64,000 nt of DNA from a virus. Lineage: Duplodnaviria; Heunggongvirae; Uroviricota; Caudoviricetes. The notes beneath the pieces are model-generated. The model was not told the DNA's origin. It made no database searches and saw only the letters and a list, made by a program, of their open reading frames with translations. The translations under genes and the position numbers were made by a program. The stretch lies in IMG/VR virus record IMGVR_UViG_3300025678_000001; one strand, given 5' to 3'. Numbering within the stretch: position 1 is the stretch's first letter; the number at the start of each line of letters is the position of its first letter. Of the stretch, positions 6,782 through 35,864 are shown one piece after another.

Positions 6782-6804
6782 TTCTACAAAGTTAACTTGT
6801 AGAA
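6782..6804. promoter_or_regulatory. dyad operator TTCTACAA-N7-TTGTAGAA
   Basis: perfect 8-bp inverted half-sites separated by AGTTAAC, intergenic between minus-strand genes. Confidence 0.4.
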
Positions 6805-6832
6805 CTCACTCTTTTTAAACAACTTTATCACA

Positions 6833-8998
6833 TTAGTTTAGTTTGACCCAGGTAGATCCGTCATAGCCCCACCAGCCTTTTGTAGTAATGGCTCCGGCAC
6901 CAGCCGATGTAGCATATACCAGAAGACCTTCTGCCGGGGTGGCAATGGCTTCGGCCTGGGCTCCCGTCATGCGGGGAGGTAAGAAACCTTTTGTAGTACT
7001 ACTGATCTCCAGAATAGCAGAAGCTCCGGGGGAAGTTGTACCAATACCTATATTGTCTGTACTGGCTTTTGCGTAGAACAGGTTGCTATTGGTTTGACCT
7101 TTGATCCAGAAGTTGACGTTTGAGTTATTTCCAGGATTGACATATATGCCTCCATAAAACTCAAGATGCATGTTTACTAAACCCCCGGATCCAACCATAT
7201 CAAGATTCGAGTTTTCATGTCTCAATATGACAGGATTACCTGTTACATCAATCCCAAAAGTACCACCACCAGTAAGATTCATATACAACCTGAACTTGTT
7301 ATCCAGGGTAAAGTATCCGGTATTTGAAGCATTTGTAAAGTATACACAGTAGGCATTCTGGTCATTTGTAGCCCCGGTCACCTGAAGTCTGGCATTACCA
7401 TAGTCAGTTGTACTACCAATACTCATCTCATCAGAGAAATAAGATTTTCCGATTACCTGAAGCTTATGACCCGTATCTGAGGTACTTCCTATAATAGCAT
7501 TGACACCAGTGTCGTATATGACCGAATTACCAATAGATCCTGCTCCAGTCCACTTGGTAACATAGTTGGTAGTTCCTGAACCACTAATACCTCCGGACGC
7601 AATTGTCCAGGATCTATCTGCACTAAGGTCGAGGGTTGTTCCATTGATCGTGATTGTTCTAGTTGTAGGTACAGCTCCAATTTCTGATAAGATCTGGGCT
7701 GCTGTTCTATACTTTATTACTCCACTATCAGATACAAGGATCTTATCTGTAGTTACTGCAGCAGCAGCTATACTACTTATAGTGAGTGAACCATAGATAT
7801 TATTTGTAGTACCATCCCAACGATATTTGATAGTACCATTTCCATCAGCTAGTACAATGTTGTTAGATACGTTTCCAATCACTACTTCCTGGCCGATGAC
7901 AGTGTTATAAGAACCTGTTGTGATTCCAGTTCCGAAATTACCACCACCAATAATCGTGTTGTTATTACCTTGAGTAATGCCAGCTCCAGCATTTTGACCG
8001 AAAGCTGCATTCTTAGCTCCAGATGTAACATTAGGAAGAGTAGTATATCCAACAGCCGTATTCAGATCACCTGTTGTACGACTGGCTAATACTCCGTCTG
8101 CTCCGATAGCTACTGAGTAGTAATCTTTACCATCAGAGATTTCCATACCCATACCAACCATGATCTTGGTATCAAACTGTATAGAAAACCCATCTTGAGT
8201 GATTGTTCTATTACCAGTTAATACACCATCTGCAGTATAAAAGTTTGGAACACTCCAGGATCTATCAGTAGAAAGATCATAAGCAGTACCGTTTATTGTA
8301 AGAATACGTGCATTTGTTACCGGGGTGTATGTGAGAGCGGTAGTTACATCAGAAGCCCCCAGAGTGATTGCTCCAGTTCTTGTATTGAAAGAACTCACAC
8401 CTGCTGCAATAGTCCATGAACGATCAGCAGAAAGGTCATATGTGGTACCATTGATCGTAAGTGTACGAGAAGTTGGTACCAGGTTCAGTTGAGCTTTGGT
8501 CATGTATTTGAGCTCATACTGTGAACCGTTTAGTTGAAAGACTGCAATCTTATCAGGATCTGTTACTGCGTTATTAATAACAGTTGCAAAAAGACCACCA
8601 CCAGCTACTATATTTCCAAACGTAGAGAGAACTCCTGAAGAGTTTAATGTCATCAGATCTCCGTTGGTTGTAGAAAGTCCATCCGTGTTTATTCCCCACT
8701 TTAACTGTCCTGTACTATGTACATATATTGAGTAGGTAGAATTAGTAAGATTGGTATCTGTAATCCACATGCCAGGAGAACCCGCACGCTTTAAAAGTAC
8801 ATAACCGTTTTCTGCGATCACGTTACCTTTAAGTCGTGTGTTACCATTAACATCTAGTTTATACCCAGAGTCAATAAGTGTTCCTACCAATAGATGCCCA
8901 CTAGAAGGAATAGAAAGACTAGCTGGTAGCGTTACATTACCAGCATCGTCATAACTAACGATGTTAATAAGATTGGATGTCTTTCTTTGGGGGTTCAT
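6833..8998 (-). CDS. tail fibre protein with three internal R(T)LTINGTxYDLSxDRSW repeats
   Basis: 721-aa G/T/S/N-rich ORF; repeat TSRTLTINGTTYDLSADRSWTI occurs three times. Confidence 0.6.
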   Translation of the reverse strand: MNPQRKTSNLINIVSYDDAGNVTLPASLSIPSSGHLLVGTLIDSGYKLDVNGNTRLKGNVIAENGYVLLKRAGSPGMWITDTNLTNSTYSIYVHSTGQLKWGINTDGLSTTNGDLMTLNSSGVLSTFGNIVAGGGLFATVINNAVTDPDKIAVFQLNGSQYELKYMTKAQLNLVPTSRTLTINGTTYDLSADRSWTIAAGVSSFNTRTGAITLGASDVTTALTYTPVTNARILTINGTAYDLSTDRSWSVPNFYTADGVLTGNRTITQDGFSIQFDTKIMVGMGMEISDGKDYYSVAIGADGVLASRTTGDLNTAVGYTTLPNVTSGAKNAAFGQNAGAGITQGNNNTIIGGGNFGTGITTGSYNTVIGQEVVIGNVSNNIVLADGNGTIKYRWDGTTNNIYGSLTISSIAAAAVTTDKILVSDSGVIKYRTAAQILSEIGAVPTTRTITINGTTLDLSADRSWTIASGGISGSGTTNYVTKWTGAGSIGNSVIYDTGVNAIIGSTSDTGHKLQVIGKSYFSDEMSIGSTTDYGNARLQVTGATNDQNAYCVYFTNASNTGYFTLDNKFRLYMNLTGGGTFGIDVTGNPVILRHENSNLDMVGSGGLVNMHLEFYGGIYVNPGNNSNVNFWIKGQTNSNLFYAKASTDNIGIGTTSPGASAILEISSTTKGFLPPRMTGAQAEAIATPAEGLLVYATSAGAGAITTKGWWGYDGSTWVKLN

Positions 8999-9015
8999 TA
9001 CGGATTACTTAAAGA

Positions 9016-9294
9016 TTAAACCAGGGGAAGCAGTGTGATATTCAGCTTGTCAGCTACATACTGATAGGCTGATTCATTACTGTTATCCCAGGCTACATAG
9101 TCATTACCTTCCATCAGAACATTACCTTCTGCAATAGAGGTTTCAACAAAAGGTTCTGTAACTGCTACGTTATAGAGTTGGTAGTAAAACTTAGCATAAC
9201 TTTTAAGATCGTCATACACACTTACTACACTGATCTTGCTGATGGTCATTAACCGACCATTGTACCATACATCAAAAGGTTGGATTGTTCTCAT
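9016..9294 (-). CDS. hypothetical protein (fibre-associated)
   Basis: 92-aa ORF between the two fibre genes. Confidence 0.45.
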   Translation of the reverse strand: MRTIQPFDVWYNGRLMTISKISVVSVYDDLKSYAKFYYQLYNVAVTEPFVETSIAEGNVLMEGNDYVAWDNSNESAYQYVADKLNITLLPLV

Positions 9295-9299
9295 AGTTG

Positions 9300-12200
9300 T
9301 TAATATTCTGTTTCGATATAAATACGGTTAATACCAAGCTGGATCTGGGTAGCTACTGTTAAAGCAGCATTACTAGCCAGAACACCAGCTGTAAGTAAGG
9401 TTGTGTTTGTGGGAAGGTTGGTTGTAGCAGTACCAGAAGCCTCGGTACCAGTTGTGATATCCACAATTCTCCAAGTATATTGTGAACTGTTTGGAGCACA
9501 GTAGATAAATAGATCATATCCTTTTTTGGATGTGATTGTAAAGCCAGTTGAAGCTTTTGTAGCAGCTGTACCTCTTGTAAGGAACGAGATAGCTCCGTTA
9601 TCAGCAGCATCCACACAGAATCCTACAGTATTGTTCAAAGCTGAAGGATCTGCAGATACTACAGTGGTAGCAGAGTGCATGCCAGCAAAGAAACGACCAC
9701 CATTTGTCCATACGTCAAAACCACAACGAGTATAGAAGAAGAAACCACCTTGACCAGCAGCACCACCCCTCATAAACATGGCATCAGTATTTCTTTGACC
9801 AAGTACCTGGTTCGTTGTAGTTACCACATTTGCGTACCTACTTCTCTTTGTGGCAGTATAAACGTTGGTAGTTGTAGGAAGGGCTGACGTAAATGTACCA
9901 GAACCAGCACCAGCTGTACCAATCCACAAACCAGCTGTTGCACCAGTGGTTGTCCACAGTACAATGTTGTTCTGCCATAAAGCAGATTGTAGAGACATGG
10001 CCAGACCAGTATCCCCGAGGATTCTAGCTGTTGCTCTACCAGCAATATACTTAGAGTATTTTACTGTGTTACCAGATGCAGGAACAGAAGGTTCTGTACT
10101 CAGACCTTTGATAAGCATCTGACTATTTGTAGCCAGTAATGATAAGATACCATTTGTGTCATCCCAGGTAAAGTTAGCAGATGCTCCCAGGGTACCGGCA
10201 TTATTATATTGGATCTGGGTATTTGAACCAGCCGGTGAAGCTGTTACAGTAGCCCAAGTATTATCTCCCCTCAGATATGTTGACGCTGAAGGGGTACCTG
10301 TAGCTGAAAGGTTTGAGATACCTACAATGGAGTTAGCCAGAGTTGTAGCAATAGCTGTTGTCCCAGATCCTGTTACAGCTCCGGATAATGTGATTGTTTG
10401 GTTACCTGTGAGATAAGTGTTTGTATCCAGAGCGAACGTACCAGCAGATGTCATCTTCACAAAGGAAGTTGAGACAAAGGACAGACCTGCTAAAGAAGTC
10501 AGGTTTGTGGACAAAGGTTGAGCACCAATAGTGTTATAACTTACTGTAAGAGCACTAGCTCCATTGAAAGTACTACCAGAAGTTCCACCGGTACCACCAT
10601 TGTTGAATGTAATAGCATTTGTTGTTGTACCACCACTACCAGATGGCGCGGCCCATGTTCCATCTGCACGAAGGAAGTTAGAAGTTCCTCCACCAGAAGC
10701 AGGAACCAGACCTTTCAGAGTACTTGTAAAGACATCCAGAAGTGTGGTAGCTTGTGTACCAGTCAATGTTTCCACGTTACCAGTTCCAGCTGTCACCCTA
10801 CCATGGAATGTACCAGTAGCTACCTGGGCCAACATGGCATTGGTTACCTTATTAGCACCAATGGTTGTTGTGATTGCTGTTGTACCAGTACCGGAAATAT
10901 CTCCAGAGAGTGTGATAGATTGGTTGGCTGTCAGATAAGTAGAACTATCCAGGCTACCATCACCTTTTACAAACTGACCAGACGTACCAGAAATATAGCT
11001 TATAACACCGGCTGTGGATTTTACAATACCAGTTCCTGACAAAGGAGCCTGATAGCTAAGAGCAGGAATATCAGTAGCAACCAGTAACCTAAATCCTGGA
11101 GTACCTGCAGAACCATTAGGAGCCGCATATACAAAGTTTGCAGTTTGAGATCCAAATGTGTTGTTTAGATCTGTACCGGTAACAGCTGTGTTACCCGTTA
11201 CGCGACCCTTTGTATCCAGGGTGATCTTTACAAAGTTGGCACCAGTAGATTGAACTACAGTAGCTAAGGTAGTTGTAATAGCGGTTGACCCTGTACCAGA
11301 AACGTCACCAGAAAGAGTGATCGACTGGTTTGCAGTTAGATAGGTTGAGGTATCAAATACCCAGGTATTGGTACCTGTACCAGTGTACTTCAGTAAGCCA
11401 GCACTGGCTCCGAGAGCCGGGAGAGCTACCCCTCTAAGACCTGTAACTGTTATTGCGGGTGTCAGAGATGTAGCACCAGATCCACCAGAAGAAGATACAT
11501 CTCCTGTAGGACTGAATGAGATTGTCTGGTTAGCTGTAAGATAAGTACTCGTGTCTAGAGTCCAGGTATTCAGAGCTGTTTTCTTAGCAAAACCTGTAGT
11601 TCCAGCCAGTGCTGCTATGGCACTAAGATCACCATCAAGCGGTTGATATGTTGTGGCAGCAGTAGCTGAAGTCAGATAAGGACTCAAAGCTGAACTGGTA
11701 ATATATCCAGAGTCATTCGTAAATGAAGATACGTTTGTCGGGGCCCCTGTTAGCTTACTATAGGCCAGGGAAGTAATCCAGGTTGGATCAGCGTACGAAC
11801 CACTTGTCAGAACATCACCAACACTCCAGGAACGGTTGAGAGATAAATCCAGGGTAGTACCGTTAATAGTCAAAGTTCTGGTTGTCTGTACATATCCGGT
11901 AAGGGCTGATGAGGTTATATAACCAGCATCATTTGTAAAACTGGATACGTTTGTGGGTGCTCCAGTCAGTTTACCATAAGCTAATGAAGTGATCCATGCA
12001 GGGTTTGCATAAGATCCAGAAGTATAAACTCCATTTGTTACAGTTCCGGCATTTCCACTAATACTGATGCTCCAGGTACCAGAAGCACCTGTACCGGTCA
12101 GAGAAGGAATATCAGTACCAATAGCCAGACCAAGATTTGTTCTAGCTGCCAGAGCTGTACTTGCACCAGTACCACCATTTACAATACCAAGTTCTCCAGA

Positions 12201-14882
12201 TACAGCTGCTGACTGATTTAAAGCTACCGCATTCCATTCTACCTGTGTACCGGTAGCATTAACCAGAAGTGATTTATAAGCGGCACCAAGAGTAAGTTTA
12301 CCCCAGGTATTTAAGGCAGAACCGTATAACAGATCTCCTACTGCTACGGTACTTAAACCAGTACCACCATGAGTAGGATCTACAATTCCAGATAAAGAAA
12401 ACTCAGTTCCAATAAGTTGTAAAGGAGCCAATGCTGAGTAATCCGGAGATGCACTAAAGAGTGTAAAGTCAATATCACTAACACCAAAGATAATTGGTGT
12501 ACTGATCGTCATTACATAAGACTCACCAGCACCAGGACTACCTTCTTTCAGATAGAAGTAGTCACCCTGGCCAAGTTTTGATGTACTATTTGGTCCGTAT
12601 TTATTAGTATCAGTAGAGCGGGTAAGCACCCAGTTAGTAGAACCAGATCCTACGTTTGTTACGGTATAAATACCGTTTTTGTACATAGCAACATCTTGAT
12701 CAAGTAAAACTCGATCACCCACATTCATTGTAACACCATTGATGACAAGAGCTGCTTGTACACCAGCATTTGTAAGAGTGGCTCCAACACCGGTATTAGC
12801 TTTACCACCTAGAGTATATCCAGATCCATTTGTAAGAGTTGTAATCTCAACACCACCATAAGTGGCAGATACTAGAAATGTATTCGGTGTAGGTACATCA
12901 TGTACAAAGTAGGCAACACCAGTTGTCAGACCATAAGCTGATGTATTGAATGTCACTACATCATCTACAGATAATCCATGGTTTACAGAAGTTGTCAGTG
13001 TTGTACCGCCTGAGATTGCAGTTACTGTAAACGTAGTTCCACCATCAGCATAGGTGGCGTTAACAGGACCATGAAGTTCTACACGAACTGCAGGATGAAT
13101 ATCAATACCAGTTGAGGTAGCATTATCTACATACTCTTTTGTAGTAAGTTGTGTAGCGTAAGTAACTGGGGCTGTAGCATACATAGCACCAGTAGATGAT
13201 ACGTTTCCAGTAATTCTGGCTGAACCAACAACCTGGAGTTTGTTTACCGTATCATCAGTAATAGTATTCAGAAGCAGGTTACCTGTTGCTGCTTTCAAGG
13301 TCATTTTGATATCAGCAGAAGACAGACCACCTGCAAACAGCACAATATCACTACCAGGAGTACCAGTACCTAAGTAGAGCATAGAAGGCTGAGCTCCTGC
13401 CCCACCTCCGGTAAACACATAACCAGAGTTAGCTGGAAAGATTGAATAGGTACTAGAGCTGTAGTTAGAGCTGTTGATACCCATATCAATGAAATAAGAA
13501 TCTACATCTGATGCATCATTATAAGCTACAAAGTCAGCTGAAGCATCTGAACCAGCATGTAGGTTTTGTACATATACCAACTGATAGTTGTTGGTATTTG
13601 ATACAAAACTAGCCATGGTATTGATGTACGGGGTATTACTTGTAACACCAGTACCATATACCTGTAGAGTCTTTGCTATGATGTCAGTAGCTGTAAGATC
13701 GTGTAAACCAAGATCCAGATCAGAAGTTGCCCCACTATAAGGAACGAATCCTGATACAGCAGCTACAGAAAGTGTAAAGTTTGGATAACTACCAGTGATT
13801 GTTACTCCACCTCCATTTGTAAGTGTTACTACCTGATCAGGAGCAGAGTTAGTAATTACACCAGTAGTATTGTTATAGTTAATACCAGTACCAGAAGATA
13901 AACCAGTACGAGCTATATAGTTGTTTGGATTACTTAAAGGATAGTAAGTGGCTGCTGCTGTTACAGAAGTCAGATAACTACCAAGAGCAGAAGGTATGAC
14001 ATAGTCTACCCCAGCTGTGGCGGCACTGATAGCAGTACCATTACCTTTCAGTAAGCCATTGATTGTAGTAGATAAAGTGATGGCTGGTGTAGTTGTAGCA
14101 TTAGCTACAGTTCCTGCAAAACCGTTTGCTGAAACAATAGAAACAGTAGTTACTCCACCTGTAGATACTGATGCCCAGGAAAGAGAAGAGCCATCTGTTG
14201 TCAGGAATTTACCTCCATTACCAGTTTGATCAGGAAGAGTTACTTCCATCAGAAGATCTGAGTAGATTACAATATCTACCACATCACCACTATGAACTGG
14301 ATCAACAAATGTGATACTGTGAGAAGTATTAGAGAACGAAGAGGTATTTATACGAACACCATTGATGAATACATCAAAGTATCCTACAACGAGCGTATGA
14401 GTAGTATTAAAAAGAGTCTGACCTTCAATACCACTGAAACTTTCTGTATAACGAGTAGTTGCGGTACCGGAAATAGCAGCTGTGGATATGTTGGAGATAC
14501 GACCATACTGGTCAACAGTAATAATAGGAACAGCGTTTGTTCCTCCGTAAGTATCTGCAGTTACCCCGGTAGTTGCCAGATCCAGAGTAACATCACCTGT
14601 TCCAGGATCAACGCCAGTACTTAAGATTGAAAGATTAGGTCCAACTGATATCTTACTTACATATGCTACGTCAATAGAAGATCCACTCCAACCAGTACCA
14701 TTCCAGGTAAACAGGTTATTTAGAGTAATATCATAAACAATGAAACCCTTATCACTAAGACCAAGAGTTCCACCAAGAGTGGTTCTATCAGTAGTAGTTA
14801 AAGGGTGAACCCGGGCGTTTAACAGCTTGTTTTTGTCCAGGTCTATGTTGTGTAGATATCTTGTTGTATCTAAGGTAGACAT
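9300..14882 (-). CDS. giant tail fibre or tail-associated protein (1860 aa) with several internal repeat families
   Basis: 5.6-kb ORF; tandem ~50-aa repeats (SGSYA[DN]P[AT]WITSLAY[GS]KLTGAPTNVSSFTND[AS]GYITSSAL), four STYLTANQSITLSGD repeats, and the INGTTLDLS motif shared with the 721-aa fibre. Confidence 0.65.
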   Translation of the reverse strand: MSTLDTTRYLHNIDLDKNKLLNARVHPLTTTDRTTLGGTLGLSDKGFIVYDITLNNLFTWNGTGWSGSSIDVAYVSKISVGPNLSILSTGVDPGTGDVTLDLATTGVTADTYGGTNAVPIITVDQYGRISNISTAAISGTATTRYTESFSGIEGQTLFNTTHTLVVGYFDVFINGVRINTSSFSNTSHSITFVDPVHSGDVVDIVIYSDLLMEVTLPDQTGNGGKFLTTDGSSLSWASVSTGGVTTVSIVSANGFAGTVANATTTPAITLSTTINGLLKGNGTAISAATAGVDYVIPSALGSYLTSVTAAATYYPLSNPNNYIARTGLSSGTGINYNNTTGVITNSAPDQVVTLTNGGGVTITGSYPNFTLSVAAVSGFVPYSGATSDLDLGLHDLTATDIIAKTLQVYGTGVTSNTPYINTMASFVSNTNNYQLVYVQNLHAGSDASADFVAYNDASDVDSYFIDMGINSSNYSSSTYSIFPANSGYVFTGGGAGAQPSMLYLGTGTPGSDIVLFAGGLSSADIKMTLKAATGNLLLNTITDDTVNKLQVVGSARITGNVSSTGAMYATAPVTYATQLTTKEYVDNATSTGIDIHPAVRVELHGPVNATYADGGTTFTVTAISGGTTLTTSVNHGLSVDDVVTFNTSAYGLTTGVAYFVHDVPTPNTFLVSATYGGVEITTLTNGSGYTLGGKANTGVGATLTNAGVQAALVINGVTMNVGDRVLLDQDVAMYKNGIYTVTNVGSGSTNWVLTRSTDTNKYGPNSTSKLGQGDYFYLKEGSPGAGESYVMTISTPIIFGVSDIDFTLFSASPDYSALAPLQLIGTEFSLSGIVDPTHGGTGLSTVAVGDLLYGSALNTWGKLTLGAAYKSLLVNATGTQVEWNAVALNQSAAVSGELGIVNGGTGASTALAARTNLGLAIGTDIPSLTGTGASGTWSISISGNAGTVTNGVYTSGSYANPAWITSLAYGKLTGAPTNVSSFTNDAGYITSSALTGYVQTTRTLTINGTTLDLSLNRSWSVGDVLTSGSYADPTWITSLAYSKLTGAPTNVSSFTNDSGYITSSALSPYLTSATAATTYQPLDGDLSAIAALAGTTGFAKKTALNTWTLDTSTYLTANQTISFSPTGDVSSSGGSGATSLTPAITVTGLRGVALPALGASAGLLKYTGTGTNTWVFDTSTYLTANQSITLSGDVSGTGSTAITTTLATVVQSTGANFVKITLDTKGRVTGNTAVTGTDLNNTFGSQTANFVYAAPNGSAGTPGFRLLVATDIPALSYQAPLSGTGIVKSTAGVISYISGTSGQFVKGDGSLDSSTYLTANQSITLSGDISGTGTTAITTTIGANKVTNAMLAQVATGTFHGRVTAGTGNVETLTGTQATTLLDVFTSTLKGLVPASGGGTSNFLRADGTWAAPSGSGGTTTNAITFNNGGTGGTSGSTFNGASALTVSYNTIGAQPLSTNLTSLAGLSFVSTSFVKMTSAGTFALDTNTYLTGNQTITLSGAVTGSGTTAIATTLANSIVGISNLSATGTPSASTYLRGDNTWATVTASPAGSNTQIQYNNAGTLGASANFTWDDTNGILSLLATNSQMLIKGLSTEPSVPASGNTVKYSKYIAGRATARILGDTGLAMSLQSALWQNNIVLWTTTGATAGLWIGTAGAGSGTFTSALPTTTNVYTATKRSRYANVVTTTNQVLGQRNTDAMFMRGGAAGQGGFFFYTRCGFDVWTNGGRFFAGMHSATTVVSADPSALNNTVGFCVDAADNGAISFLTRGTAATKASTGFTITSKKGYDLFIYCAPNSSQYTWRIVDITTGTEASGTATTNLPTNTTLLTAGVLASNAALTVATQIQLGINRIYIETEY

Positions 14883-23197: not shown

Positions 23198-23315
23198 AAC
23201 TTAACTTGGTTTTTTGTTGTATTCTTCTACAATAAAAATATACAACTTTAAACCTTATCAAGTTACTTTTTGTAGAACTTAGGGGGCTGATGTCCGTATA
23301 ATAGGGCTATAGTTC

Positions 23316-26074: not shown

Positions 26075-26380
26075 TTAGTTATTTGTATACAGAGAGGGTG
26101 TAGGATGATCAGACCCCTGAGCTGTTAGTGAGCTTAAAGCTTGAACATTGTTACTATACAGAATACCACTATCTCTGGGCTGCCAGGGAGCAGTTGTAGG
26201 AGTATTCCACGGATGATTAGGAGCAGCCGTACCTGGTATATTGATCGGCAGAAGAGGTTTGATACCCAGTGATTCTTCTTCTTTTAACAGCAGAATAGCT
26301 TCTTCCAGAGTAAGGGAGCTTTCTTTGATCAAACGAGAAAGTATAGCTACTTTCTGGGAATGTAATGTACTGTTTTCCAT
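26075..26380 (-). CDS. hypothetical protein
   Basis: 101-aa ORF between the terminase-like and portal-like genes. Confidence 0.4.
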   Translation of the reverse strand: MENSTLHSQKVAILSRLIKESSLTLEEAILLLKEEESLGIKPLLPINIPGTAAPNHPWNTPTTAPWQPRDSGILYSNNVQALSSLTAQGSDHPTPSLYTNN

Positions 26381-28578
26381 TATCTTAGGTTTTTAAAGGG
26401 TGTTCTGGGTGGTGTCATACTTTTGGAACCCCCTTCTGATGACCCAATATGTCTAAAAGGTCTCCAATTTAATTTACTGATTTTTTGGGAGTTCTCCAAC
26501 TTTTGTTCCACTCGTTCTACACGTTTGGTGTATCCACGGTTGGCTTGTTGAACCTTGGCAAAGGCTATGAGTGCACAGAAAGATACCAGACGGTCCACGT
26601 TGAGTCCATCATAGTAAGCTTTCATCTCTTTGAGCAGCATTGGATCCGGAATACGTTCCACGCCGTAGGTTGTCCTTACAATGGTCCCGTCTTCCTTTGT
26701 TTCGTGGTCCAGTTCTTCCTTGGTAAACTCGATACCGTAGCTTAGGATGTTACCCTTGAATAGGGTCCCTACGTTTTTCCAACCATATTCCTGGAAGACG
26801 TTTCGGTTGGCTCCCAGGTCCTTCAGAAACAGAATCATGTCTTTTGGCACCAGGTACCGCTGTTTCTTTTTAGAGATCATGTACTGGATAAATAAGGCCA
26901 CGTTATTCTCCACAACTGTCCAAGCATTATACCACTCGATCATCAACTCTAGGCGTTCATGAGTTTTGTTGATGTCATCAAAACGTCCACACCAGCTAGC
27001 CACGATCTTATCCCGCTCTATGGTGTTCTCTACTTTACCATCACCATAGTCCTTAATGACTTCAACCGGGTTTTTATAGATGTAGATCGAGCATAGGGAA
27101 TCTGAGGTTGTAGTCTTACCTTCTCCTACCGGGTCGACAGACGCGTAGTACATTCCAAAAGGAGGGTCTTTAACCGGTCGTTCGTAGATACAGATGACCC
27201 CTTCTTTGTTTTCCATCTTCTTTGGTACAGGAAACTCCATGATCGGAGTCTTCCTGGAGGGAGAGTCAATGATCTTCCCTTCAGCATTTCTGGAGAGCTC
27301 TAGGTATTCAACAGGGTACTCTTTATCAGCGATCCGTCGTTCTTGTTGTGCAACTAGGTGTGCAGGGAATACGCTTACTTTACGCGTATCAAACGCTTCC
27401 TCGATGTTTCTGGGGTGCTGAGAAAGCTCTAGCTGGTAAGCTTGAGGGGTAAGATCTCGTTTGGCCTTCTCAAAGTACTTATCCAGGGCCTCTAAGGCTT
27501 TTTCTACCAGAGAGTTTCCAAATTCATCCATGTATGGAGGCATGGACCACTGTTCTGGTATAAAGAGCCCGGTTACTCTGATTGTACCATTCTTGTCTAC
27601 AAGATTGGACTCTACACCATAGAACCCGTTTTCTTCCGGATGCATAATGTATTCTTTCATGGGTTCACACTGATCCAGGTCACCCACGGAACCAGCAGCT
27701 ATGAACTGACCGGTAATGATATGACCAGACTTCAGGGCCGGCTTGATATAACCATAGGTCAGGTCCATCTTGGGTGCGATACCGCCCTCTTCATGGAAGA
27801 AATAAGTTACCGGTCCACCAACGCCATTTGTAGGATCCTTTTCAAAAGAGTAACCAGCAATGGTACTCTTAAGACCCTTATAGGTATCACGGCCATTTAT
27901 ACGTACTTTGATCTGCTGGTTCCAGGCAAATACCTTATCAGGTTCGGCCGGTCGGTACCAGGCAGTATGCTCGTTCAAGAAGTTTTTGTATTCATCCAGG
28001 AACTTCCAGGAGCCTTTCTCGTTTATATAGTCTTTCAGTGAGGCACCGATCTTACAGATACTACCGGATTCAAACCAGTAAGTATTGATCAGTTTTGCCA
28101 TATGAAAGTAAGAAGAAGCTATCTGACGCTTCTTTAGGATGATAGCATGTTTGTAGTTCAGCTCAGCCAGATGTTCATACAAGGCCATATGATACTGGGC
28201 ATCACGAACCTTGGCAAAGTCAAACTTCTTTTCTTCCTTGTCATAGATAGGAAGAAAGTTGAGCCACATGTAGTAGTCCCTGGTTATATACCAGGTCTTT
28301 GACTTGTTCTTTACAATGATGCCGTTTCTGCACTTATTCTTCTGGTCATCCCAGTAGGTCATGAAGTCTTTGCTCTTCAGTGGAGCATTGCAGTAGTAAC
28401 CCTGGGTCTGAAACTTACGAGCCTCAGCATTAAAGATCCTGGTTACTTCATCAAACTCATACTTGCCTGGTTCTTTGAATAGAAAGAACAAGAAATCCCG
28501 GAACTCCTCCCGGGTATTAAAAGTGGTTACGAACCAGTTACCGTTTTCGTAGGTAGGGACTTGTTTAAAGGGGGTCAT
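26380..28578 (-). CDS. putative terminase large subunit
   Basis: 732-aa ORF; C-terminal nuclease-like segment (YYASVDPVGEG...SLCSIYIYK...TVVENN); position upstream of the portal. Confidence 0.55.
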   Translation of the reverse strand: MTPFKQVPTYENGNWFVTTFNTREEFRDFLFFLFKEPGKYEFDEVTRIFNAEARKFQTQGYYCNAPLKSKDFMTYWDDQKNKCRNGIIVKNKSKTWYITRDYYMWLNFLPIYDKEEKKFDFAKVRDAQYHMALYEHLAELNYKHAIILKKRQIASSYFHMAKLINTYWFESGSICKIGASLKDYINEKGSWKFLDEYKNFLNEHTAWYRPAEPDKVFAWNQQIKVRINGRDTYKGLKSTIAGYSFEKDPTNGVGGPVTYFFHEEGGIAPKMDLTYGYIKPALKSGHIITGQFIAAGSVGDLDQCEPMKEYIMHPEENGFYGVESNLVDKNGTIRVTGLFIPEQWSMPPYMDEFGNSLVEKALEALDKYFEKAKRDLTPQAYQLELSQHPRNIEEAFDTRKVSVFPAHLVAQQERRIADKEYPVEYLELSRNAEGKIIDSPSRKTPIMEFPVPKKMENKEGVICIYERPVKDPPFGMYYASVDPVGEGKTTTSDSLCSIYIYKNPVEVIKDYGDGKVENTIERDKIVASWCGRFDDINKTHERLELMIEWYNAWTVVENNVALFIQYMISKKKQRYLVPKDMILFLKDLGANRNVFQEYGWKNVGTLFKGNILSYGIEFTKEELDHETKEDGTIVRTTYGVERIPDPMLLKEMKAYYDGLNVDRLVSFCALIAFAKVQQANRGYTKRVERVEQKLENSQKISKLNWRPFRHIGSSEGGSKSMTPPRTPFKNLR

Positions 28579-29768: not shown

Positions 29769-29801
29769 GAAGTATAAAACTGTAACTCTCTAAAGGATCT
29801 T

Positions 29802-32014: not shown

Positions 32015-32015
32015 G

Positions 32016-32447
32016 TTACAAATCCATTTTAAAAAACATGTAGTCTTCTCCTGTACCTCCCCAGTTTACATGCAGAACTACTGGTGTAGCTCCAAGGTTC
32101 TCGAAGATGTGCCAGCTCTTTCCTTTCCTGGCCTCTCCAGTTACATGCTTAAACCCAAACTCTTTAGCCCATTCCAGACCGGCTCTGACTATTTTGTAAC
32201 CAAGACCTTTTCCTTGAAAGGCCGGGAGTACAGTGAAACTGTCAATGTGAGCCACGTTATCACTCTCCCAGCTAAAAAGGATCTCAGCTACTATTTCAGA
32301 TCGGTCAACAAGCCAGATACCCTGAAACTTGTCTTCCTGGGTAAGCATGTACAACTTGTACTTATCATCCCATCGAAGCTCTTTGGGATGCTCGCGTTCA
32401 AACTTGAAAGTCTCTTTGTAGTCTTTGAGTTTGTACAGGATCTTCAT
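32016..32447 (-). CDS. GNAT-family N-acetyltransferase
   Basis: motif A FQGKGLGYKIVRAGLEWAKEFGF (Q/RxxGxG) in a 143-aa ORF. Confidence 0.7.
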   Translation of the reverse strand: MKILYKLKDYKETFKFEREHPKELRWDDKYKLYMLTQEDKFQGIWLVDRSEIVAEILFSWESDNVAHIDSFTVLPAFQGKGLGYKIVRAGLEWAKEFGFKHVTGEARKGKSWHIFENLGATPVVLHVNWGGTGEDYMFFKMDL

Positions 32448-32448
32448 A

Positions 32449-32844
32449 TTACTTTTTCAGTGTTCGTTCTTTTTTCTGCTCCTGCTCATTAGGGATGATC
32501 ACTTCCTCACCAACGGTTAATCCCATCTCAGCCAGTTCCGGATTGTTATCCAGATCTTCCTGGGTAATCTTATGAGGAGTTCCTCCCTGATAAGGATCCG
32601 GATCTGGTTTAGGGTTCGTGATCTGGGCAATAAAAGTCAACGCTTTTAGCTCCTCGGCCCTGGACACAGCTAAACGTGTGTTCAGATCCTGGAGCTCAAC
32701 CTGGACTTTTTTTACTTCGATCTGTTCTTGGAAAAACTTGAGGATTTCCTCCCTGGTAGGGGCAGTCTTTTCCTCGGTGGGAGTTACATTGTCCTTAGAC
32801 ATAGGGCGTGGGTTTTTTAGGTGTTTAGAAATTCGGGCTATCAT
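32449..32844 (-). CDS. hypothetical protein
   Basis: 131-aa ORF. Confidence 0.45.
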   Translation of the reverse strand: MIARISKHLKNPRPMSKDNVTPTEEKTAPTREEILKFFQEQIEVKKVQVELQDLNTRLAVSRAEELKALTFIAQITNPKPDPDPYQGGTPHKITQEDLDNNPELAEMGLTVGEEVIIPNEQEQKKERTLKK

Positions 32845-33118
32845 CTGACTCTACCCCATGGTAGGCCAGAAACTTATGTTCAAACTCTTCAAACGGAGTG
32901 TCAATGATCAGATGGTCGTCGTTCTTCATGAACAATGTGGTACATCCGCATGTCATCTCACCCTCATCATCTGAGGTAAGCTTAATACTTCTTACATCTT
33001 CCAAGAGAAACACAAAGTCCAGCCATTTACCTTTGTCGGTAATGTTCATGTCCTCAGCTTCTTTTGGATCCATGGAGTAGCAATGAAGCCTACACTTATG
33101 AAGCTTTAGAGTTTTCAT
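32825..33118 (-). CDS. hypothetical protein
   Basis: 97-aa ORF. Confidence 0.45.
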   Translation of the reverse strand: MKTLKLHKCRLHCYSMDPKEAEDMNITDKGKWLDFVFLLEDVRSIKLTSDDEGEMTCGCTTLFMKNDDHLIIDTPFEEFEHKFLAYHGVESDDSPNF

Positions 33119-33333
33119 TAGAGTACGGATTTGTTTTTCTTAGAAACATGGTACTGGTTATACCGCATATACTTGCTCTGGTTGGAGGCCTTGAGGATCT
33201 GGGTTGCCAGGGCACGTTCGGCTTCACCATCCCGGACATCTACTACGGGAACGTAGATCTTCTGTCCGTACTTATTTACAGTCTCTCTGAAATAGGATAA
33301 CTGGGTTTGATCGTCTAATGATTGGTTTTCCAT
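33118..33333 (-). CDS. hypothetical protein (first gene of the minus-strand operon)
   Basis: 71-aa ORF; the TTCTACAA-N7-TTGTAGAA dyad lies just upstream. Confidence 0.4.
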   Translation of the reverse strand: MENQSLDDQTQLSYFRETVNKYGQKIYVPVVDVRDGEAERALATQILKASNQSKYMRYNQYHVSKKNKSVL

Positions 33334-33381
33334 AGTGTAATAAGTTAAGGTTACAGTATAATATACTTAATAAGTTTAAAC

Positions 33382-33404
33382 TCTACAAATTTATCTTGTA
33401 GAAC
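33382..33404. promoter_or_regulatory. dyad operator TCTACAA-N7-TTGTAGA(AC) upstream of the structural operon and downstream of hxlR
   Basis: same half-sites and 7-nt spacer as the 6782 dyad. Confidence 0.45.
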
Positions 33405-33533
33405 TTATAAAAAGTACACAAACTTATACACTATGTGTGGATATGTAAGCGTTGAGGAAGTACAAAGAAAGCCGGTTACTTGGAGAGATGCAAGTACCCG
33501 GGCCCTAAATATCTTAGAGAGGTTAGGTGGTAA

Positions 33534-33920
33534 CTAGGCAGAAAGCTGTTCCTTTTCTAATAAGACAATGATGTCTTCTGGGAGATTGTGCTTCTTATGA
33601 TGCTTGTAGAAATAGTTCACCAGGGCTTTGTGGTAGACCTCCTGGGCATGCGTGAGAGGTTTGGTATCCTCATGAAGTTCATAGGTAACTTTTACCGGTA
33701 TGGTCTGGTACTGCTTTCGTACAACCAGCTCATATTCTTCCAGATCTTTTAAGGTCTCACTGAGGACTTTGACAGATATATCCGGGAGCTTGCGTTTGAG
33801 TTCAGAGAATCTCATGGGGCCCTGGCGTAGGTGCCAGATAACTACTGCTCTCCACTTTTTGCCCCACATCTCGGAGGCTAGGTTCATCAGGTAAGCTGCT
33901 AACATATGATTACAACACAA
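33534..33920 (-). CDS. HxlR-family winged-helix transcriptional regulator
   Basis: WGKKWRAVVIWHLRQGPMRFSELKRKLPDISVKVLSETLKDLEEYELVVRKQYQTIPVKVTYELHE matches the HxlR/DUF24 signature (WxxxILxxLxxGPxRFxEL...IxxKxLxxxLKxLExxGLVxR...P..VEYxLT). Confidence 0.8.
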   Translation of the reverse strand: MCCNHMLAAYLMNLASEMWGKKWRAVVIWHLRQGPMRFSELKRKLPDISVKVLSETLKDLEEYELVVRKQYQTIPVKVTYELHEDTKPLTHAQEVYHKALVNYFYKHHKKHNLPEDIIVLLEKEQLSA

Positions 33921-34048
33921 TAAACAAAACTCAGCAGTAGTAGTTGTCTTTAGAGTGGACTATTTCTCACTGAGGTAAGTAGATTACTAAGGGGTAATAC
34001 TTAGTAAAATTAATCAGTGTCAGCTTATATACAACTGATTCTTATCAG

Positions 34049-34120
34049 TTTCCTCCCCTGGGTACGATCCAGGAACTGCAGGGCCAAAACCTGCCGTGAT
34101 ACCAGTTTCACCAAAAGGAA
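34049..34120 (-). tRNA. tRNA-Gln(UUG)
   Basis: T-arm CCTGG/ATCGTAC/CCAGG, anticodon arm GCAGG-UUUUGGC-CCUGC, acceptor pairs with two GU. Confidence 0.6.
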
Positions 34121-34126
34121 ATAGTG

Positions 34127-34198
34127 GGTGTAAGGACGGTACCGACCCGTCTTCCCCAGGTCCACAACCTGGTGCATCACCTTAATGCTTCAAACACC
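34127..34198 (-). tRNA. tRNA-His(GUG)-like, encoded G-1/C73, two U-U mismatches in the acceptor stem
   Basis: anticodon arm CCAGG-UUGUGGA-CCUGG; T-arm GACGG/GTCGGTA/CCGTC; extra 5-prime G opposite C73. Confidence 0.45.
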
Positions 34199-34203
34199 AT
34201 AAG

Positions 34204-34275
34204 AGCCTTCTACCGGAACCGACCCGGTAAGTCCTGTTTACAAGACAGGCAGTTTTCCAGTTAGCTTAAGAAGGC
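34204..34275 (-). tRNA. tRNA-Thr(UGU)
   Basis: perfect 7-bp acceptor (GCCTTCT/AGAAGGC), T-arm ACCGG/GTCGGTT/CCGGT, anticodon loop CTTGTAA. Confidence 0.65.
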
Positions 34276-34280
34276 CTGTG

Positions 34281-34353
34281 TGGTACAGAGTGGTTACGAT
34301 CCACTTCCCCCGGTTTTTCAGACCGGTGCTTCTACCAAGTTAGCTTCTGCACC
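34281..34353 (-). tRNA. tRNA-Phe(GAA)
   Basis: T-arm AGTGG/ATCGTAA/CCACT, anticodon arm CCGGT-CTGAAAA-ACCGG, acceptor with one GU. Confidence 0.65.
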
Positions 34354-34428
34354 AAGTAGGACTTTGTCAAAGCCGGCCACTCCTGCACAAAGAGGAGACC
34401 AGCTTGATCAGGTGTCCTGAAACCTTTG

Positions 34429-34501
34429 AGGTGGGTGGGAAACTCGAAGCCCCGTATGACTGTTTTGCGGACAGTTGCCTTACCATCTTGGCGAACCCAC
34501 C
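34429..34501 (-). tRNA. tRNA-Cys(GCA)-like (C33, weak T-stem)
   Basis: acceptor GGTGGGT/ACCCACC, D-arm GCC-AAGATGGTAA-GGC, anticodon loop CCGCAAA, T-loop TTCGAGT. Confidence 0.4.
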
Positions 34502-34507
34502 ATGTTG

Positions 34508-34579
34508 TCTAGCTGATCTGGATCGAACAGACGTAATCTTGCTCCCAAAGCAAGTGCCTTACCGCTAGGCTACAGCTAG
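34508..34579 (-). tRNA. tRNA-Pro(UGG)
   Basis: acceptor CTAGCTG/CAGCTAG, D-arm GCC-TAGCGGTAA-GGC, anticodon arm CTTGC-TTTGGGA-GCAAG, T-loop TTCGATC. Confidence 0.7.
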
Positions 34580-34617
34580 AAAAAGAAAACCCCCAAACCG
34601 TTTTACCAGTCTGGGGG
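34578..34617 (-). terminator. rho-independent terminator (minus strand)
   Basis: CCCCCA...TGGGGG hairpin followed on the minus strand by TTTTCTTTTTCT. Confidence 0.5.
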
Positions 34618-34757
34618 TTAGTATTTTGATTTTGTACTTCTTAACTCGTTGCTATGATCACTGTACATACACCAACACAACTACCCCCGCAGACCGGACA
34701 AGGTTGCGTAAACTGGGTAAACTGTGTATGGGTAGTAATCTTCTTCATCTACAATAC

Positions 34758-34789
34758 AAAGATACTACTTTTTGTAGAACTACCAAAAT
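34758..34789 (-). promoter_or_regulatory. minus-strand promoter (-33 TTTTG, N19, -7 TATCTTTG) overlapping the TTGTAGAAC box
   Basis: reverse complement of caaagata (34758-65) and caaaa (34785-89); ~130 nt upstream of the 34578-34617 terminator. Confidence 0.45.
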
Positions 34790-34797
34790 CTTTTTGC

Positions 34798-34870
34798 ACG
34801 GGCCCAGGGAAACGATCCCTGTCCATCCGAGGTTTTGGAGACCTGGTGCATACCATTATGCTGGCCCATG
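34798..34870 (-). tRNA. tRNA-Trp(CCA)-like
   Basis: T-arm CAGGG/ATCGTTT/CCCTG; anticodon loop CTCCAAA with a 27-43 mismatch; acceptor with GU. Confidence 0.45.
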
Positions 34871-34875
34871 TATGT

Positions 34876-34959
34876 GGGAAGTGAGTGAGTCGAACACCCC
34901 GAGTCCGTAGACAGCTGGTTTACAATCAGCCCCGCTACCACTTACGGTATAACTTCCCC
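34876..34959 (-). tRNA. tRNA-Tyr(GUA), class II (long variable arm)
   Basis: acceptor GGGAAGT/ACTTCCC, anticodon loop TTGTAAA, T-arm GGGTG/TTCGACT/CACTC, 84 nt. Confidence 0.55.
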
Positions 34960-35040
34960 TATTTCGCATATCCAGTCAGTAGTCTTTCCGTCAAAAGCTA
35001 TCAACCAGAGTATGCCGTTCATATTAACGATGTACATGCA

Positions 35041-35123
35041 GAGAGCAGAGTAGTCGAAACCCACCCCGGTTAAGGAGCCCACTGTTTAGCAAACAGGTCT
35101 GACCACCTAGTCAGTTTACTCTC
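35041..35123 (-). tRNA. tRNA-Ser(GCU)-like, class II, T-arm poorly formed
   Basis: anticodon arm CCTGT-TTGCTAA-ACAGT, D-arm CTGAC-TAGGTG-GTCAG, acceptor GAGAGTA/TGCTCTC. Confidence 0.4.
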
Positions 35124-35129
35124 TAGATG

Positions 35130-35221
35130 CGGAAGGCAGAGGAACCGACCCCCATGCCCGTGTAAGGGGCAGCCTAGTTTTCAAGACTAGTCGCCACTCC
35201 AATGTAGCTGCATTACCTTCC
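35130..35221 (-). tRNA. tRNA-Ser(UGA), class II
   Basis: acceptor GGAAGGT/GCCTTCC, anticodon arm CTAGT-CTTGAAA-ACTAG, variable-arm hairpin, T-loop GTCGGTT. Confidence 0.6.
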
Positions 35222-35226
35222 ATGTA

Positions 35227-35313
35227 GTACCGGTGGAGGGGGATGATCCCACACGATCCTTTCGGATCACAAGATTTTAAGTCTTGCGTGTCTGCCTATT
35301 TCACCACACCGGC
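35227..35313 (-). tRNA. tRNA-Leu(UAA), class II
   Basis: anticodon arm CAAGA-CTTAAAA-TCTTG, variable-arm hairpin GATCC-GAAA-GGATC, acceptor GCCGGTG/CACCGGT. Confidence 0.55.
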
Positions 35314-35394
35314 AGTTGTCTGGACTCTCACCATAGCAGTCAGGGATTTCAGGTCCCCAGGTGTGCATTCAATTCGTCCCACCTTCTGACATCG

Positions 35395-35477
35395 TACCTC
35401 TGACAGGCCTCGAACCTGCACCCGTTTCCGGACTAGATCCTAAGTCTAGCGTGTCTCCCAAGTTTCACCACAGAGGT
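35395..35477 (-). tRNA. tRNA-Leu(UAG), class II
   Basis: perfect acceptor ACCTCTG/CAGAGGT, T-arm GCAGG/TTCGAGG/CCTGT, anticodon arm CTAGA-CTTAGGA-TCTAG. Confidence 0.65.
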
Positions 35478-35518
35478 ATAAAAACCAAAATCCCGACCAG
35501 GAAAACCTAATCGGGATT
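35478..35518 (-). terminator. rho-independent terminator (minus strand)
   Basis: 8-bp stem AATCCCGA/TCGGGATT followed on the minus strand by TTTGGTTTTTAT. Confidence 0.5.
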
Positions 35519-35673
35519 GGAAACTTTTTCAGTAACTACATACCTCACCCGATTGGTTTATGCAACCAATACAGACTGAGTGAGGATAGAGTAAACTGCT
35601 TCATAAAAATTTGGTGGATGGTCACCCCACTTGTTTTAATCTAAACAAGAAATCATCGGTCGGTTACGTTAAC

Positions 35674-35735
35674 TTCTCAGCTTGAACGCCTGTCGTGTGA
35701 CCTTTCAGCTTTCACGCCTGTTAAGAGGCTTTACC
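35674..35735. repeat. imperfect direct repeat CAGCTT(G/T)(A/C)ACGCCTGT x2, spaced 29 nt
   Basis: cagcttgaacgcctgt and cagctttcacgcctgt inside the short promoter-to-terminator unit. Confidence 0.35.
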
Positions 35736-35748
35736 GACCATCACAATA

Positions 35749-35780
35749 CAAATATACAACTCTTTTGGAGTTCTACAAAA
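35749..35780 (-). promoter_or_regulatory. minus-strand promoter (-33 TTTTG in TTTTGTAGAAC, N19, -7 TATATTTG)
   Basis: reverse complement of caaatata (35749-56) and caaaa (35776-80); transcribes a ~230-nt ORF-free segment ending at the 35478-35518 terminator. Confidence 0.45.
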
Positions 35781-35788
35781 TATTTTTG

Positions 35789-35864
35789 TGGAGACTCTGG
35801 AACTTGAATCCAGCTGATATCCTGCTTGCAAGGCAGGTGTCCACTCCTGGCAGACCCAGTCCCC
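35789..35864 (-). tRNA. tRNA-Ala(UGC)
   Basis: T-arm CTGGA/TTCAAGT/TCCAG, anticodon arm CCTGC-CTTGCAA-GCAGG. Confidence 0.6.

Follow-up and report, generated by a model that had tools for sequence, protein, structure and literature searches.

Inverted promoter boxes at late-type promoter sites of a distant crAss-like phage, with an HxlR/DUF24-family neighbour as candidate binder

Primary-sigma promoters of the Bacteroidota are built from a -33 TTTG and a -7 TAnnTTTG element, which lie about 19-21 nt apart. In phages, the switch from early to late transcription can be carried out by proteins that act at promoter-overlapping sites, such as phi29 p4 and T4 MotA, whose box lies at -30. We know of no account of how crAss-like phages accomplish the middle-to-late transcription switch, and to our knowledge the HxlR/DUF24 family is known only as a cellular stress sensor. 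In HxlR-family proteins, which contact DNA as dimers, the two recognition helices are spaced 34.8 Å from each other (PMC7835342). Phage phi14:2 and its relatives have extended tripartite promoters that are read by the host polymerase and lie upstream of late structural, portal-region and tRNA genes (bioRxiv 10.1101/2020.03.07.982082). The crAss001 paper does not give phage promoter sequences. A literature search for HxlR operators returned nothing specific, and one with the sequence string returned primers and the like and nothing else.

The DNA analysed here, referred to as the window, is a 64,000-nt stretch of IMG/VR record IMGVR_UViG_3300025678_000001. The phage is a distant crAss-like phage with a Bacteroidota-type host. 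Its closest named phage by portal protein comparison is Leptolyngbya phage Lbo-JY46 (31%), and a nucleotide search of GenBank phages found nothing but tRNA matches. A sequence-only reading of the window had proposed a separate class of operators, namely three dyads with 7-nt spacers (N7) built from the promoter box. The derivation from the promoter box is borne out. The 8-mer TTGTAGAA occurs in 20 copies against 3.7 expected, and the actual unit of repetition is the 10-mer TTGTAGAACT, with 11 copies against 0.23 expected, 10 of which lie in or abut non-coding DNA. This box occupies the canonical TTG-N19/20-TAnnTTTG position in three promoters (35778, 46466 and 55500), which fit the Bacteroidota TTG/19-21 nt/TAnnTTTG scheme exactly and include those for the tmRNA and tRNAs. 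The assignment of the box as a -33 element follows from the reference promoter, which precedes the tmRNA gene. The features that bear on the box are:

55500..55530, plus strand: reference promoter TTGTAGAACT-N13-TATATTTG (TTG-N20-TA), 9 nt before the tmRNA gene
55540-56198: tmRNA gene
46466..46495, plus strand: box at -33 of a TTG-N19-TACATTTG promoter, with the inverted half-box GTTCTACA after it
37207..37228, minus strand: promoter heading the tRNA cluster, box in the spacer, TATATTTG at 37214..37207
34757..34781, minus strand: promoter within the tRNA cluster with an inverted box in its spacer, TTTTG-gt-AGTTCTACAA-aaagtag-TATCTTTG
45816..45870, plus strand: two direct boxes 45 nt apart, the second abutting the ATG of a 187-aa gene, with no -7 box after either

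Three late-type promoters have an inverted box without a -7 partner upstream of them, and one promoter spacer contains another; the box is therefore not a fixed core promoter element. Plus-strand (antisense) promoters driven from the inverted boxes were considered and rejected, as neither TAnnTTTG nor TATATTAT is found at 18-21 nt. A single box is no palindrome and makes an awkward target for a symmetric dimer.

Two of the three proposed dyads lie at late-type promoter sites. Their immediate surroundings are:

6782..6804, no strand: dyad A, TTCTACAA-AGTTAAC-TTGTAGAA, perfect arms with N7
33381..33403, no strand: dyad B, CTCTACAA-ATTTATC-TTGTAGAA as read on the plus strand, one mismatch in the left arm
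33351..33405, minus strand: structural-operon late promoter and upstream box, AGTTCTACAA-ga-TAAATTTG (block 1, -33)-tAGA-GTTTAAAC (block 2)-ttattaa-GTATATTATAcTGTAA (block 3 plus start region)
33118..33333, minus strand: first late gene, 71 aa, kept directly after the late promoter in relatives
33534..33920, minus strand: HxlR/DUF24-family winged-helix gene (Pfam PF01638), likely start ATG 33905 from alignment with relatives

Re-reading the sequence returned dyad A exactly as it had been described, a perfect N7 dyad. For dyad B, which had been called perfect and placed at 33382-33404, the N7 dyad stands; its left arm carries one mismatch and it spans 33381-33403. Dyads with at most one mismatch number two in the window against 0.00 expected from 100 dinucleotide shuffles, and with up to three mismatches there are three against 0.56 expected, a count reached in 2 of the 100 shuffles. 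The placement of B between the HxlR-like gene (33534-33905/33920, minus strand) and the first late gene (ATG 33333, minus strand) was also correct. Standing at this HxlR/structural operon boundary and sharing bases with the late promoter's -33 block, B is well placed to gate late expression, as had been suggested.

On the coding (minus) strand, dyad B reads TTCTACAA-N7-TTGTAGAG. At the sequence level, A and B share one architecture, in which an inverted TTGTAGAACT lies 7 nt upstream of a mirror-like TTTGTAGA(A/G), followed by GTTTAAAC; at B, the mirror-like element is block 1 of the late promoter. Site B matches AAATTTG-N4-GTTTAAAC-N7-GTATATTAT exactly before the first late gene, and this tripartite promoter is carried by more than 118 IMG/VR contigs. 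As block 1 of a clade-wide promoter, the right arm of B does not count as an independent half-site. Late-type promoters of this kind have TATATTAT(a)nTGTAGA in place of TAnnTTTG. Compared with Bacteroidota sigma-A promoters, dyads A and B contain TAACTTTG and TAAATTTG, respectively, and the nearest upstream TTG is 25 nt off; they do not appear to be canonical Bacteroidota promoters. A further site, site C, aligns with module B and lies upstream of a 422-aa gene:

23225..23279, minus strand: site C, with inverted box AGTTCTACAA (23279..23270), a degenerate block 1, GTTTAAAG (23253..23246) and GTATATTTTTATTGTAG (23243..23227)

Site A is a window-specific local paralogue of B over 34 nt. The shared block, AGTTCTACAAG-N5-TTTGTAGA(A)GTTTAAACT, is identical at 31 of 34 positions, with an alignment score of 51 against a mean of 16.4 and a maximum of 28 in shuffles. 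The corresponding features are:

6773..6806, minus strand: module A, 34 nt, inverted box AGTTCTACAA + G + TTAAC + TTTGTAGAA + GTTTAAACT
6301..6762, minus strand: 153-aa gene downstream of dyad A

Module A, which contains a -7-like TAACTTTG at 6794..6787, precedes the ATG of the 153-aa gene by 11 nt. It has blocks 1-2 only, with an N5 spacer and no third block, and for this reason is not a full member of the tripartite late promoter. Site A may have arisen recently by the copying of part of module B (blocks 1-2) to a place before the 153-aa late gene. The third proposed member has a different composition:

35771..35793, no strand: third site, TTCTACAA-AATATTT-TTGTGGAG, two mismatches

Its quoted sequence and imperfect symmetry were right, with the position corrected from 35764-35786 to 35771-35793. 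A minus-strand promoter supplies the left arm as its -33 box (box 35778..35769, -7 TATATTTG at 35756..35749), and six of the eight right-arm bases belong to the 3′ end of tRNA-Ala (35788-35864, minus strand). We reject this site as an operator and regard it as the coincidence of a promoter box abutting the tRNA-Ala 3′ end. With the third site coincidental and A a local paralogue of B, a separate three-member operator class is not supported.

Conservation in related phages, on which the sequence-only reading had staked its proposal, separates the two remaining sites. Site A was absent before the downstream gene in all relatives compared and was seen in this genome only; homologues of the 153-aa gene in relatives are preceded by ordinary TAnnTTTG -7 boxes without a dyad. 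At B, the N7 dyad is kept in the window and in five other IMG/VR contigs (L165, L199, L202, L254 and L301), all five of which encode an HxlR-family winged-helix gene just upstream. The HxlR proteins of these five are 46-67% identical to that of the window and 39-67% identical among themselves, and the six N7-dyad contigs fall in three separate HxlR clusters (39-67% identical). Left-arm columns at B are 96% conserved, as opposed to 60% for the flanks. Of about 22 TAGA-class promoters, 6 have the N7 dyad, and the rest show N13-15 spacing, a forward box or none. Two relatives (L283 and L298) carry another palindrome, TGCTAA-N5-TTAGCA, at this location, and L300 keeps a dyad with 9-nt arms and no adjacent HxlR gene.

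The association of box and HxlR gene follows block 1. Block 1 is TTTG[T/G]AGAG in 18 of 68 unique promoters, and an HxlR gene lies within 700 nt upstream of 14 of these 18 [T/G]AGA-class promoters compared with 0 of the 50 others, which lack boxes and share other blocks. Because this association is at the clade level, the HxlR-box cases are not independent events. A matching left arm was found in only one of seven TATA-class promoters (L183), so covariation of the arms was dropped as evidence. Nor did the recognition helix covary with the site: in L007, L017 and L190 the helix has diverged and the box is the same. In L009/L166 (IMGVR_UViG_3300032116_000067, 100 kb), which has boxes, neither the 3 kb upstream of the promoter nor the rest of the ~10.6-kb locus examined contains an HxlR gene. 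The route by which relatives were found matters here. Among 80 portal-anchored loci there was no dyad with at most one mismatch, an apparent non-conservation that was overturned by promoter-anchored searches, which recovered the right relatives. A search seeded by the window HxlR protein returned a single locus, as did one for homologues of the 721-aa tail gene, where a degenerate block 1-2 stands before a different gene. Across all of IMG/VR, the exact 16-base dyad has 68 matches, about the number expected by chance, none of them near GTTTAAAC or in relatives; since all lie in unrelated contexts, exact-sequence conservation is uninformative.

The HxlR-like protein, 123 aa long, is the only recognisable DNA-binding protein found near site B. 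It scores 76.4 bits against PF01638 (curated cut-off 20.8), and its closest PDB relatives include YtcD, HxlR and YodB, at E values of about 1e-13, and QsrR. The gene lies upstream of dyad B, its end 131 nt away, and is downstream of the box-bearing promoters of the tRNA cluster. No N-terminal sensing cysteine was found in helix 1 of the window protein, read from the ATG start, or of 17 phage homologues. The dyad has 8-nt arms and an N7 spacer, and its inner ACAA and TTGT are about 11 bp apart centre to centre. On geometry, a helix spacing of 34.8 Å would place the HxlR recognition helices on the inner ACAA/TTGT of the 23-bp dyad.

The sequence and the comparison with relatives show A and B to be composite sites at late-type promoters, and at B the TTTGTAGA(A/G) element to be block 1 (the -33 TTTG) of a tripartite late promoter for the host RNA polymerase. 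We tentatively read the dyads, at somewhat less than even confidence, as sites at which a dimeric regulator is predicted to bind, with the neighbouring HxlR/DUF24 protein as the best candidate binder. A dimeric phage regulator, for which the HxlR/DUF24 protein encoded immediately upstream is the candidate, would bind the 23-bp dyad, cover the -33 block and in this way control use of the late promoter by the host polymerase. One protein would then be able to act on both temporal classes, the box also standing at -33 in promoters for tRNAs, the tmRNA and middle genes. Either sign of regulation, repression or activation, fits the sequence. A wider form of this proposal, which we consider speculative and unlikely, is that the cysteine-less HxlR/DUF24 protein is the temporal switch of an environmental crAss-like clade, shutting the box-bearing tRNA, tmRNA and middle promoters by binding at their -33 box and controlling the clade-wide tripartite late promoter through the block-1 dyad.

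The strongest alternative is that these sites reflect promoter architecture only, a reading that we regard as rather unlikely. Here the box would be an extended -33/upstream element for the host RNA polymerase or a polymerase-associated phage factor of the box-bearing clade, the dyads an inverted box that happens to abut a box-like -33 block, and A a duplicated fragment, with no dedicated dyad-binder. Several observations fit: three promoters take their TTG from the box at the canonical distance, B has as its right arm a promoter block shared across the clade, relatives differ in how the left arm is spaced and oriented, and the L009/L166 boxes lack an adjacent HxlR gene. A and B are also paralogous over 34 nt, so both dyads may reflect one event. 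In addition, work on phi14:2 shows the middle and late promoters of crAss-like phages to be extended multi-block motifs read by the host polymerase (bioRxiv 10.1101/2020.03.07.982082). However, inverted boxes occur without a -7 partner on their own strand, the N7 arm is 96% conserved against 60% for its flanks across HxlR proteins only 39-67% identical, and the 50 promoters without [T/G]AGA share the other blocks and function without the box.

The dyad may instead be the operator of another phage or host DNA-binding protein, which we judge improbable. Boxes or dyads occur in L009/L166 and L300 with no HxlR gene beside them, the box stays constant where the HxlR recognition helix changes, and nine other small uncharacterised proteins near the switch region have no Pfam match. 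Against this, no alternative candidate was found, and HxlR adjoins 14 of the 18 box-type promoters. Less probable still are RNA hairpins (a terminator, attenuator or processing site) that part the tRNA-hxlR transcript from the late operon. Stems of 8-13 bp are possible on both strands and B is where the tRNA-hxlR unit ends, but these stems are weak (-6.6 to -9.8 kcal/mol, z -1.4 to -2.5), rich in AU and without a U tract. The terminator scan calls nothing at the dyads, the genuine terminators of this genome (for example near 6240 and 1560) have GC-rich stems with a run of T after them, and no such hairpin can fold in relatives whose boxes point forward. We also rejected hairpin promoters of the N4 type, read by a virion RNA polymerase, as the sites precede late genes and the window has no DFDxD motif. 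Chance juxtaposition without function is barely credible: the roughly chance number of exact IMG/VR matches and the demonstrably coincidental third site speak for it, but 0.00 dyads with at most one mismatch are expected in the window and five divergent relatives also have the dyad at the homologous site.

For the regulator-bound promoter reading, the locus offers, exactly at the boundary between early and late genes, a concrete cis-element together with a candidate trans-factor, and natural variants in related contigs (N7, N13-15, forward, other palindrome, none) provide a ready mutational series. Should the box prove to be a promoter element and nothing more, the findings still set out the promoter grammar of a phage clade that is uncultured.

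Among known systems, the locus resembles the MarR/DUF24 operators (HxlR, YodB, QsrR and HypR) in having a ~23-bp dyad beside a clear HxlR-domain gene, and the dimer helix spacing of about 35 Å is compatible with the inner ACAA-N7-TTGT of the phage dyad (PMC7835342). It differs in that cellular members have an N-terminal sensing cysteine, whereas the phage proteins do not, in that their sites serve a detoxification operon, whereas the phage site overlaps a late promoter, and in that many phage box copies are single and non-palindromic. The AAATTTG / GTTTAAAC / GTATATTAT series of the window matches the three-block promoters of phi14:2 in layout and placement; the phi14:2 report does not mention the additional inverted box or the dyad it creates (bioRxiv 10.1101/2020.03.07.982082).

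Phi29 p4 and T4 MotA have no sequence or fold relationship to the phage system here, and the likeness is one of placement, with one box that stands at -33 in early/middle promoters and shortly before late ones. Purely by analogy, such a shared layout would be expected if one protein had opposite effects on the two promoter classes. If true, an HxlR-type temporal switch would give a cellular stress-sensor family a phi29-p4-like or MotA-like role.

Inverted repeats of the form TTCTACAA-N7-TTGTAGAA occur at three places in the window, where the sequence-only reading had proposed a separate class of operators:

6782-6804, dyad A: exact; coding (minus) strand AGTTCTACAA-G-TTAAC-TTTGTAGAA-GTTTAAACT, then tataaaaaacc and ATG
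33381-33403, dyad B: one mismatch (CTCTACAA); coding (minus) strand AGTTCTACAA-G-ATAAA-TTTGTAGA-GTTTAAACT, then tattaa, GTATATTATACTGTAA, a 17-nt gap and ATG
35771-35793, third site: two mismatches

The first lies exactly where it had been placed, and the second exists, although it had been set one base off and is not perfect as claimed. The third, set seven bases off, does show a two-mismatch pattern, but this is a coincidence: the site is a minus-strand promoter with a box at -33 and TATATTTG 12 nt past the box, which by chance comes after the 3′ end of tRNA-Ala, the source of 6/8 bases of the right arm. The other two dyads are real and non-random, as the window holds two with at most one mismatch versus none in 100 dinucleotide shuffles. 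They do not form an operator class of their own. Rather, in each an inverted promoter box, the 10-mer TTGTAGAACT, meets block 1 of the late promoter (TTTG plus TAGA(A/G)); the box is the left arm and block 1 the right. The 34-nt module common to A and B is identical at 31/34 positions (alignment score 51 versus a shuffle mean of 16.4), and site C (23279-23225) can also be aligned with B. The dyad is absent in 16 relatives of the 153-aa gene downstream of A; where an intergenic region exists, it contains an ordinary -7 box, TATCTTTG or TATATTTG, 15-30 nt before the ATG, at the position held in site A by TAACTTTG. The exact dyad was not found in any related IMG/VR contig, and one relative of the tail gene upstream of A has a degenerate block 1-2 ahead of a different gene. 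The best view of site A is that of a local paralogue of module B, a partial copy specific to the window. Separately, TTCTACAATATAAATTTGTAGAA recurs in an unrelated IMG/VR family (L098, L099, L104, L111, L119 and about 10 more), where its context, …catcatacctcaata[dyad]gcgcgttttaattattgtataat, is conserved; these phages form another group, whose own conserved dyad has the same arms.

The window is a phage, with the following landmarks:

20278-21897, minus: major head protein
23316-26069, minus: portal
26380-28578, minus: large terminase
34048-37012, minus: tRNA cluster, about 20 genes
55540-56198, plus: tmRNA gene (Rfam RF00023)

The closest relatives of its portal are crAss-like phages, Cellulophaga phages phi17:2 and phi4:1, and Leptolyngbya phage Lbo-JY46 (23-31% identity); GenBank phages include no nucleotide-level relative, and IMG/VR holds hundreds of relatives with portal identities of 66-84%. 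Window promoters combine TTG, 19-20 nt and TAnnTTTG, the Bacteroidota type of consensus. No DFDxD virion-RNA-polymerase motif occurs in any frame of the 64-kb window, and no PHROG matches the 1860-aa protein (9300-14882); a crAss-type polymerase, if present, is outside the window. The tmRNA match (60.7 bits versus a gathering score of 47) was not called by ARAGORN and probably carries insertions, since the model has 374 positions and the match covers 659 nt. Rfam also finds tRNAs missed by ARAGORN at 34429-34501, 36106-36179 and, weakly, 36446-36513, and a plus-strand 120-nt tRNA match at 54691-54810 may contain an intron. Directly 3′ of the portal stop codon, about 25 relatives among L001-L080 carry the conserved 16-mer TATAGCTCTATTATCC; the window there reads TATAGCCCTATTATAC (23311-23296 (-)), with an exact copy of the 16-mer in an intergenic region at 59046-59061 (+) and 4 matches at ≤3 mismatches versus 0.52 expected.

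The 10-mer box is the real repeat unit, present in 11 copies versus 0.23 expected (TTGTAGAA, 20 versus 3.7), with 10 of these copies within non-coding DNA or bordering it. The name promoter box is fair, because three promoters take their -33 TTG from it at canonical spacing: 35778(-), within the tRNA cluster; 46466(+); and 55500(+), whose -7 box ends 9 nt ahead of the tmRNA gene. Other copies sit in promoter spacers (37228(-) and, inverted, 34772), immediately 5′ of an ATG (45861), or, in inverted orientation, ahead of three late-type promoters (6797, 23270, 33396). At these spacer, ATG-adjacent and inverted sites no -7 element follows the box on its own strand, so the box is more than a fixed core element. 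The middle-type promoters at 46466-46503 and 55500-55538 (+) are enclosed by a wide inverted repeat (N20-21), with TTGTAGAAC at -33 and GTTCTACA at the start site, which recurs in the HxlR-positive relatives L296 and L301. At 60023-60048 (+), after a terminator and 24 nt ahead of the ATG of a 173-aa gene (60072), lies a better palindrome, built from a box variant and of opposite polarity, TTGGAGAACT-gtcaca-AGTTCTCTAA, with 9/10 arms; related TTGGAGAACT boxes occur at 38429 and 38547 (-).

Before their first late gene, the relatives carry a strongly conserved three-block promoter, AAATTTG-N4-GTTTAAAC-N7-GTATATTAT(a)nTGTAGA, whose exact pattern recovers more than 118 IMG/VR contigs among the matches listed. 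Given this clade-wide promoter, the right arm of dyad B is its block 1, the -33 region. The core TTTG-N20-TATATTATAnTGTAGA also stands behind a terminator at 6220(-) and in homologues, and a related form precedes the gene after portal. In L034, L036, L053, L168, L173 and many others the first late ATG falls 3 nt past GTATATTAT (GTATATTATattATG), which implies leaderless late mRNAs; the window there reads TGTAA/TGTAGA. About 30 nt upstream of block 1, the element CACAnnnnGTGnATAAGT (33440-33419 (-)) is conserved at homologous positions in HxlR-positive and HxlR-negative relatives, independently of the box. Runs of GGGGGG(T/A)(A/T) recur at 38330-38650 (-), near the divergence of gene orientation (about 39 kb), and in HxlR-negative relatives a similar motif, ggggggataagtt, recurs 30-40 nt ahead of the late promoter; these may mark an origin or another regulator site.

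Block 1 has the form TTTG[T/G]AGAG in 18 of 68 unique promoters, all of them preceded by 700 nt or more of sequence. A gene of the winged-helix HxlR family lies within 700 nt upstream in 14/18 of these versus 0/50 of the others, an association at clade level, whose cases do not count as independent. About 22 genuine promoters of this class came from a targeted search for ATTTGTAGAGTTTAAAC.

Box arrangements beside block 1 in TTTG[T/G]AGAG promoters
N7 dyad, [T/C/G]TCTACAA-N7-TTGTAGAG: window, L165, L199, L202, L254, L301
Arm at N13-15: L188, L198, L235, L291, L300
Arm at N6, nearer by one base: L293
Forward box: L212, L214, L296
No box: L169, L271, L283, L298 (in L283 and L298, another palindrome, TGCTAA-N5-TTAGCA, in the box position)

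The six N7 loci fall in three HxlR clusters, 39-67% identical and interleaved with non-N7 loci. In their alignment, left-arm columns are 96% conserved versus 60% for the upstream flanks, which indicates selection on the inverted box beside block 1, with some freedom of spacing. Dyad B is conserved in a subclade. Arm covariation was not counted as support: L183 pairs TTTGTATAG with TATACA at the same spacing, and the compensatory arm is absent in six other TATA-class promoters.

A role as RNA hairpins is unlikely: the stems have little stability (-6.6 to -9.8 kcal/mol, z -1.4 to -2.5) and no U tracts, a terminator scan made no call at the dyads, true terminators in the window are GC-rich, and the hairpin cannot form in relatives whose box is forward. 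The better reading is a putative protein site on DNA. The best candidate binder is the product of the HxlR gene just upstream (PF01638, 76 bits), whose closest solved relatives are YtcD, HxlR, YodB and QsrR. Proteins of the HxlR family bind DNA as dimers, with 34.8 A between the recognition helices (PMC7835342), a spacing that would fit the inner ACAA-N7-TTGT, with the wings reaching the outer bases. Bound to B, such a dimer would sit over the late promoter's -33 block. Because hxlR lies downstream of three box-bearing promoters, its product would be made when the tRNAs are and could act back on their expression. Several observations count against HxlR as the binder: L009/L166 has boxes, yet neither the 3 kb upstream of its promoter nor the rest of the 10.6-kb locus examined encodes an HxlR, L300 carries a dyad with 9-nt arms and no HxlR gene next to it, the recognition helix has diverged in the L007 subgroup (L007/L017/L190) while the box is the same, and most boxes are single and non-palindromic. 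B is a credible candidate site for a regulator where early genes give way to late ones, an operator-like dyad that overlaps a promoter.

The phage HxlR proteins differ from cellular members of the family in lacking the sensing cysteine, which would make them constitutive binders. Middle and late genes of crAss-like phages are reported, in a study of phi14:2, to have an extended tripartite promoter that is read by the host polymerase and stands before late genes, portal-region genes and tRNAs (bioRxiv 10.1101/2020.03.07.982082). Compared by layout rather than by sequence logos, the window matches this arrangement.
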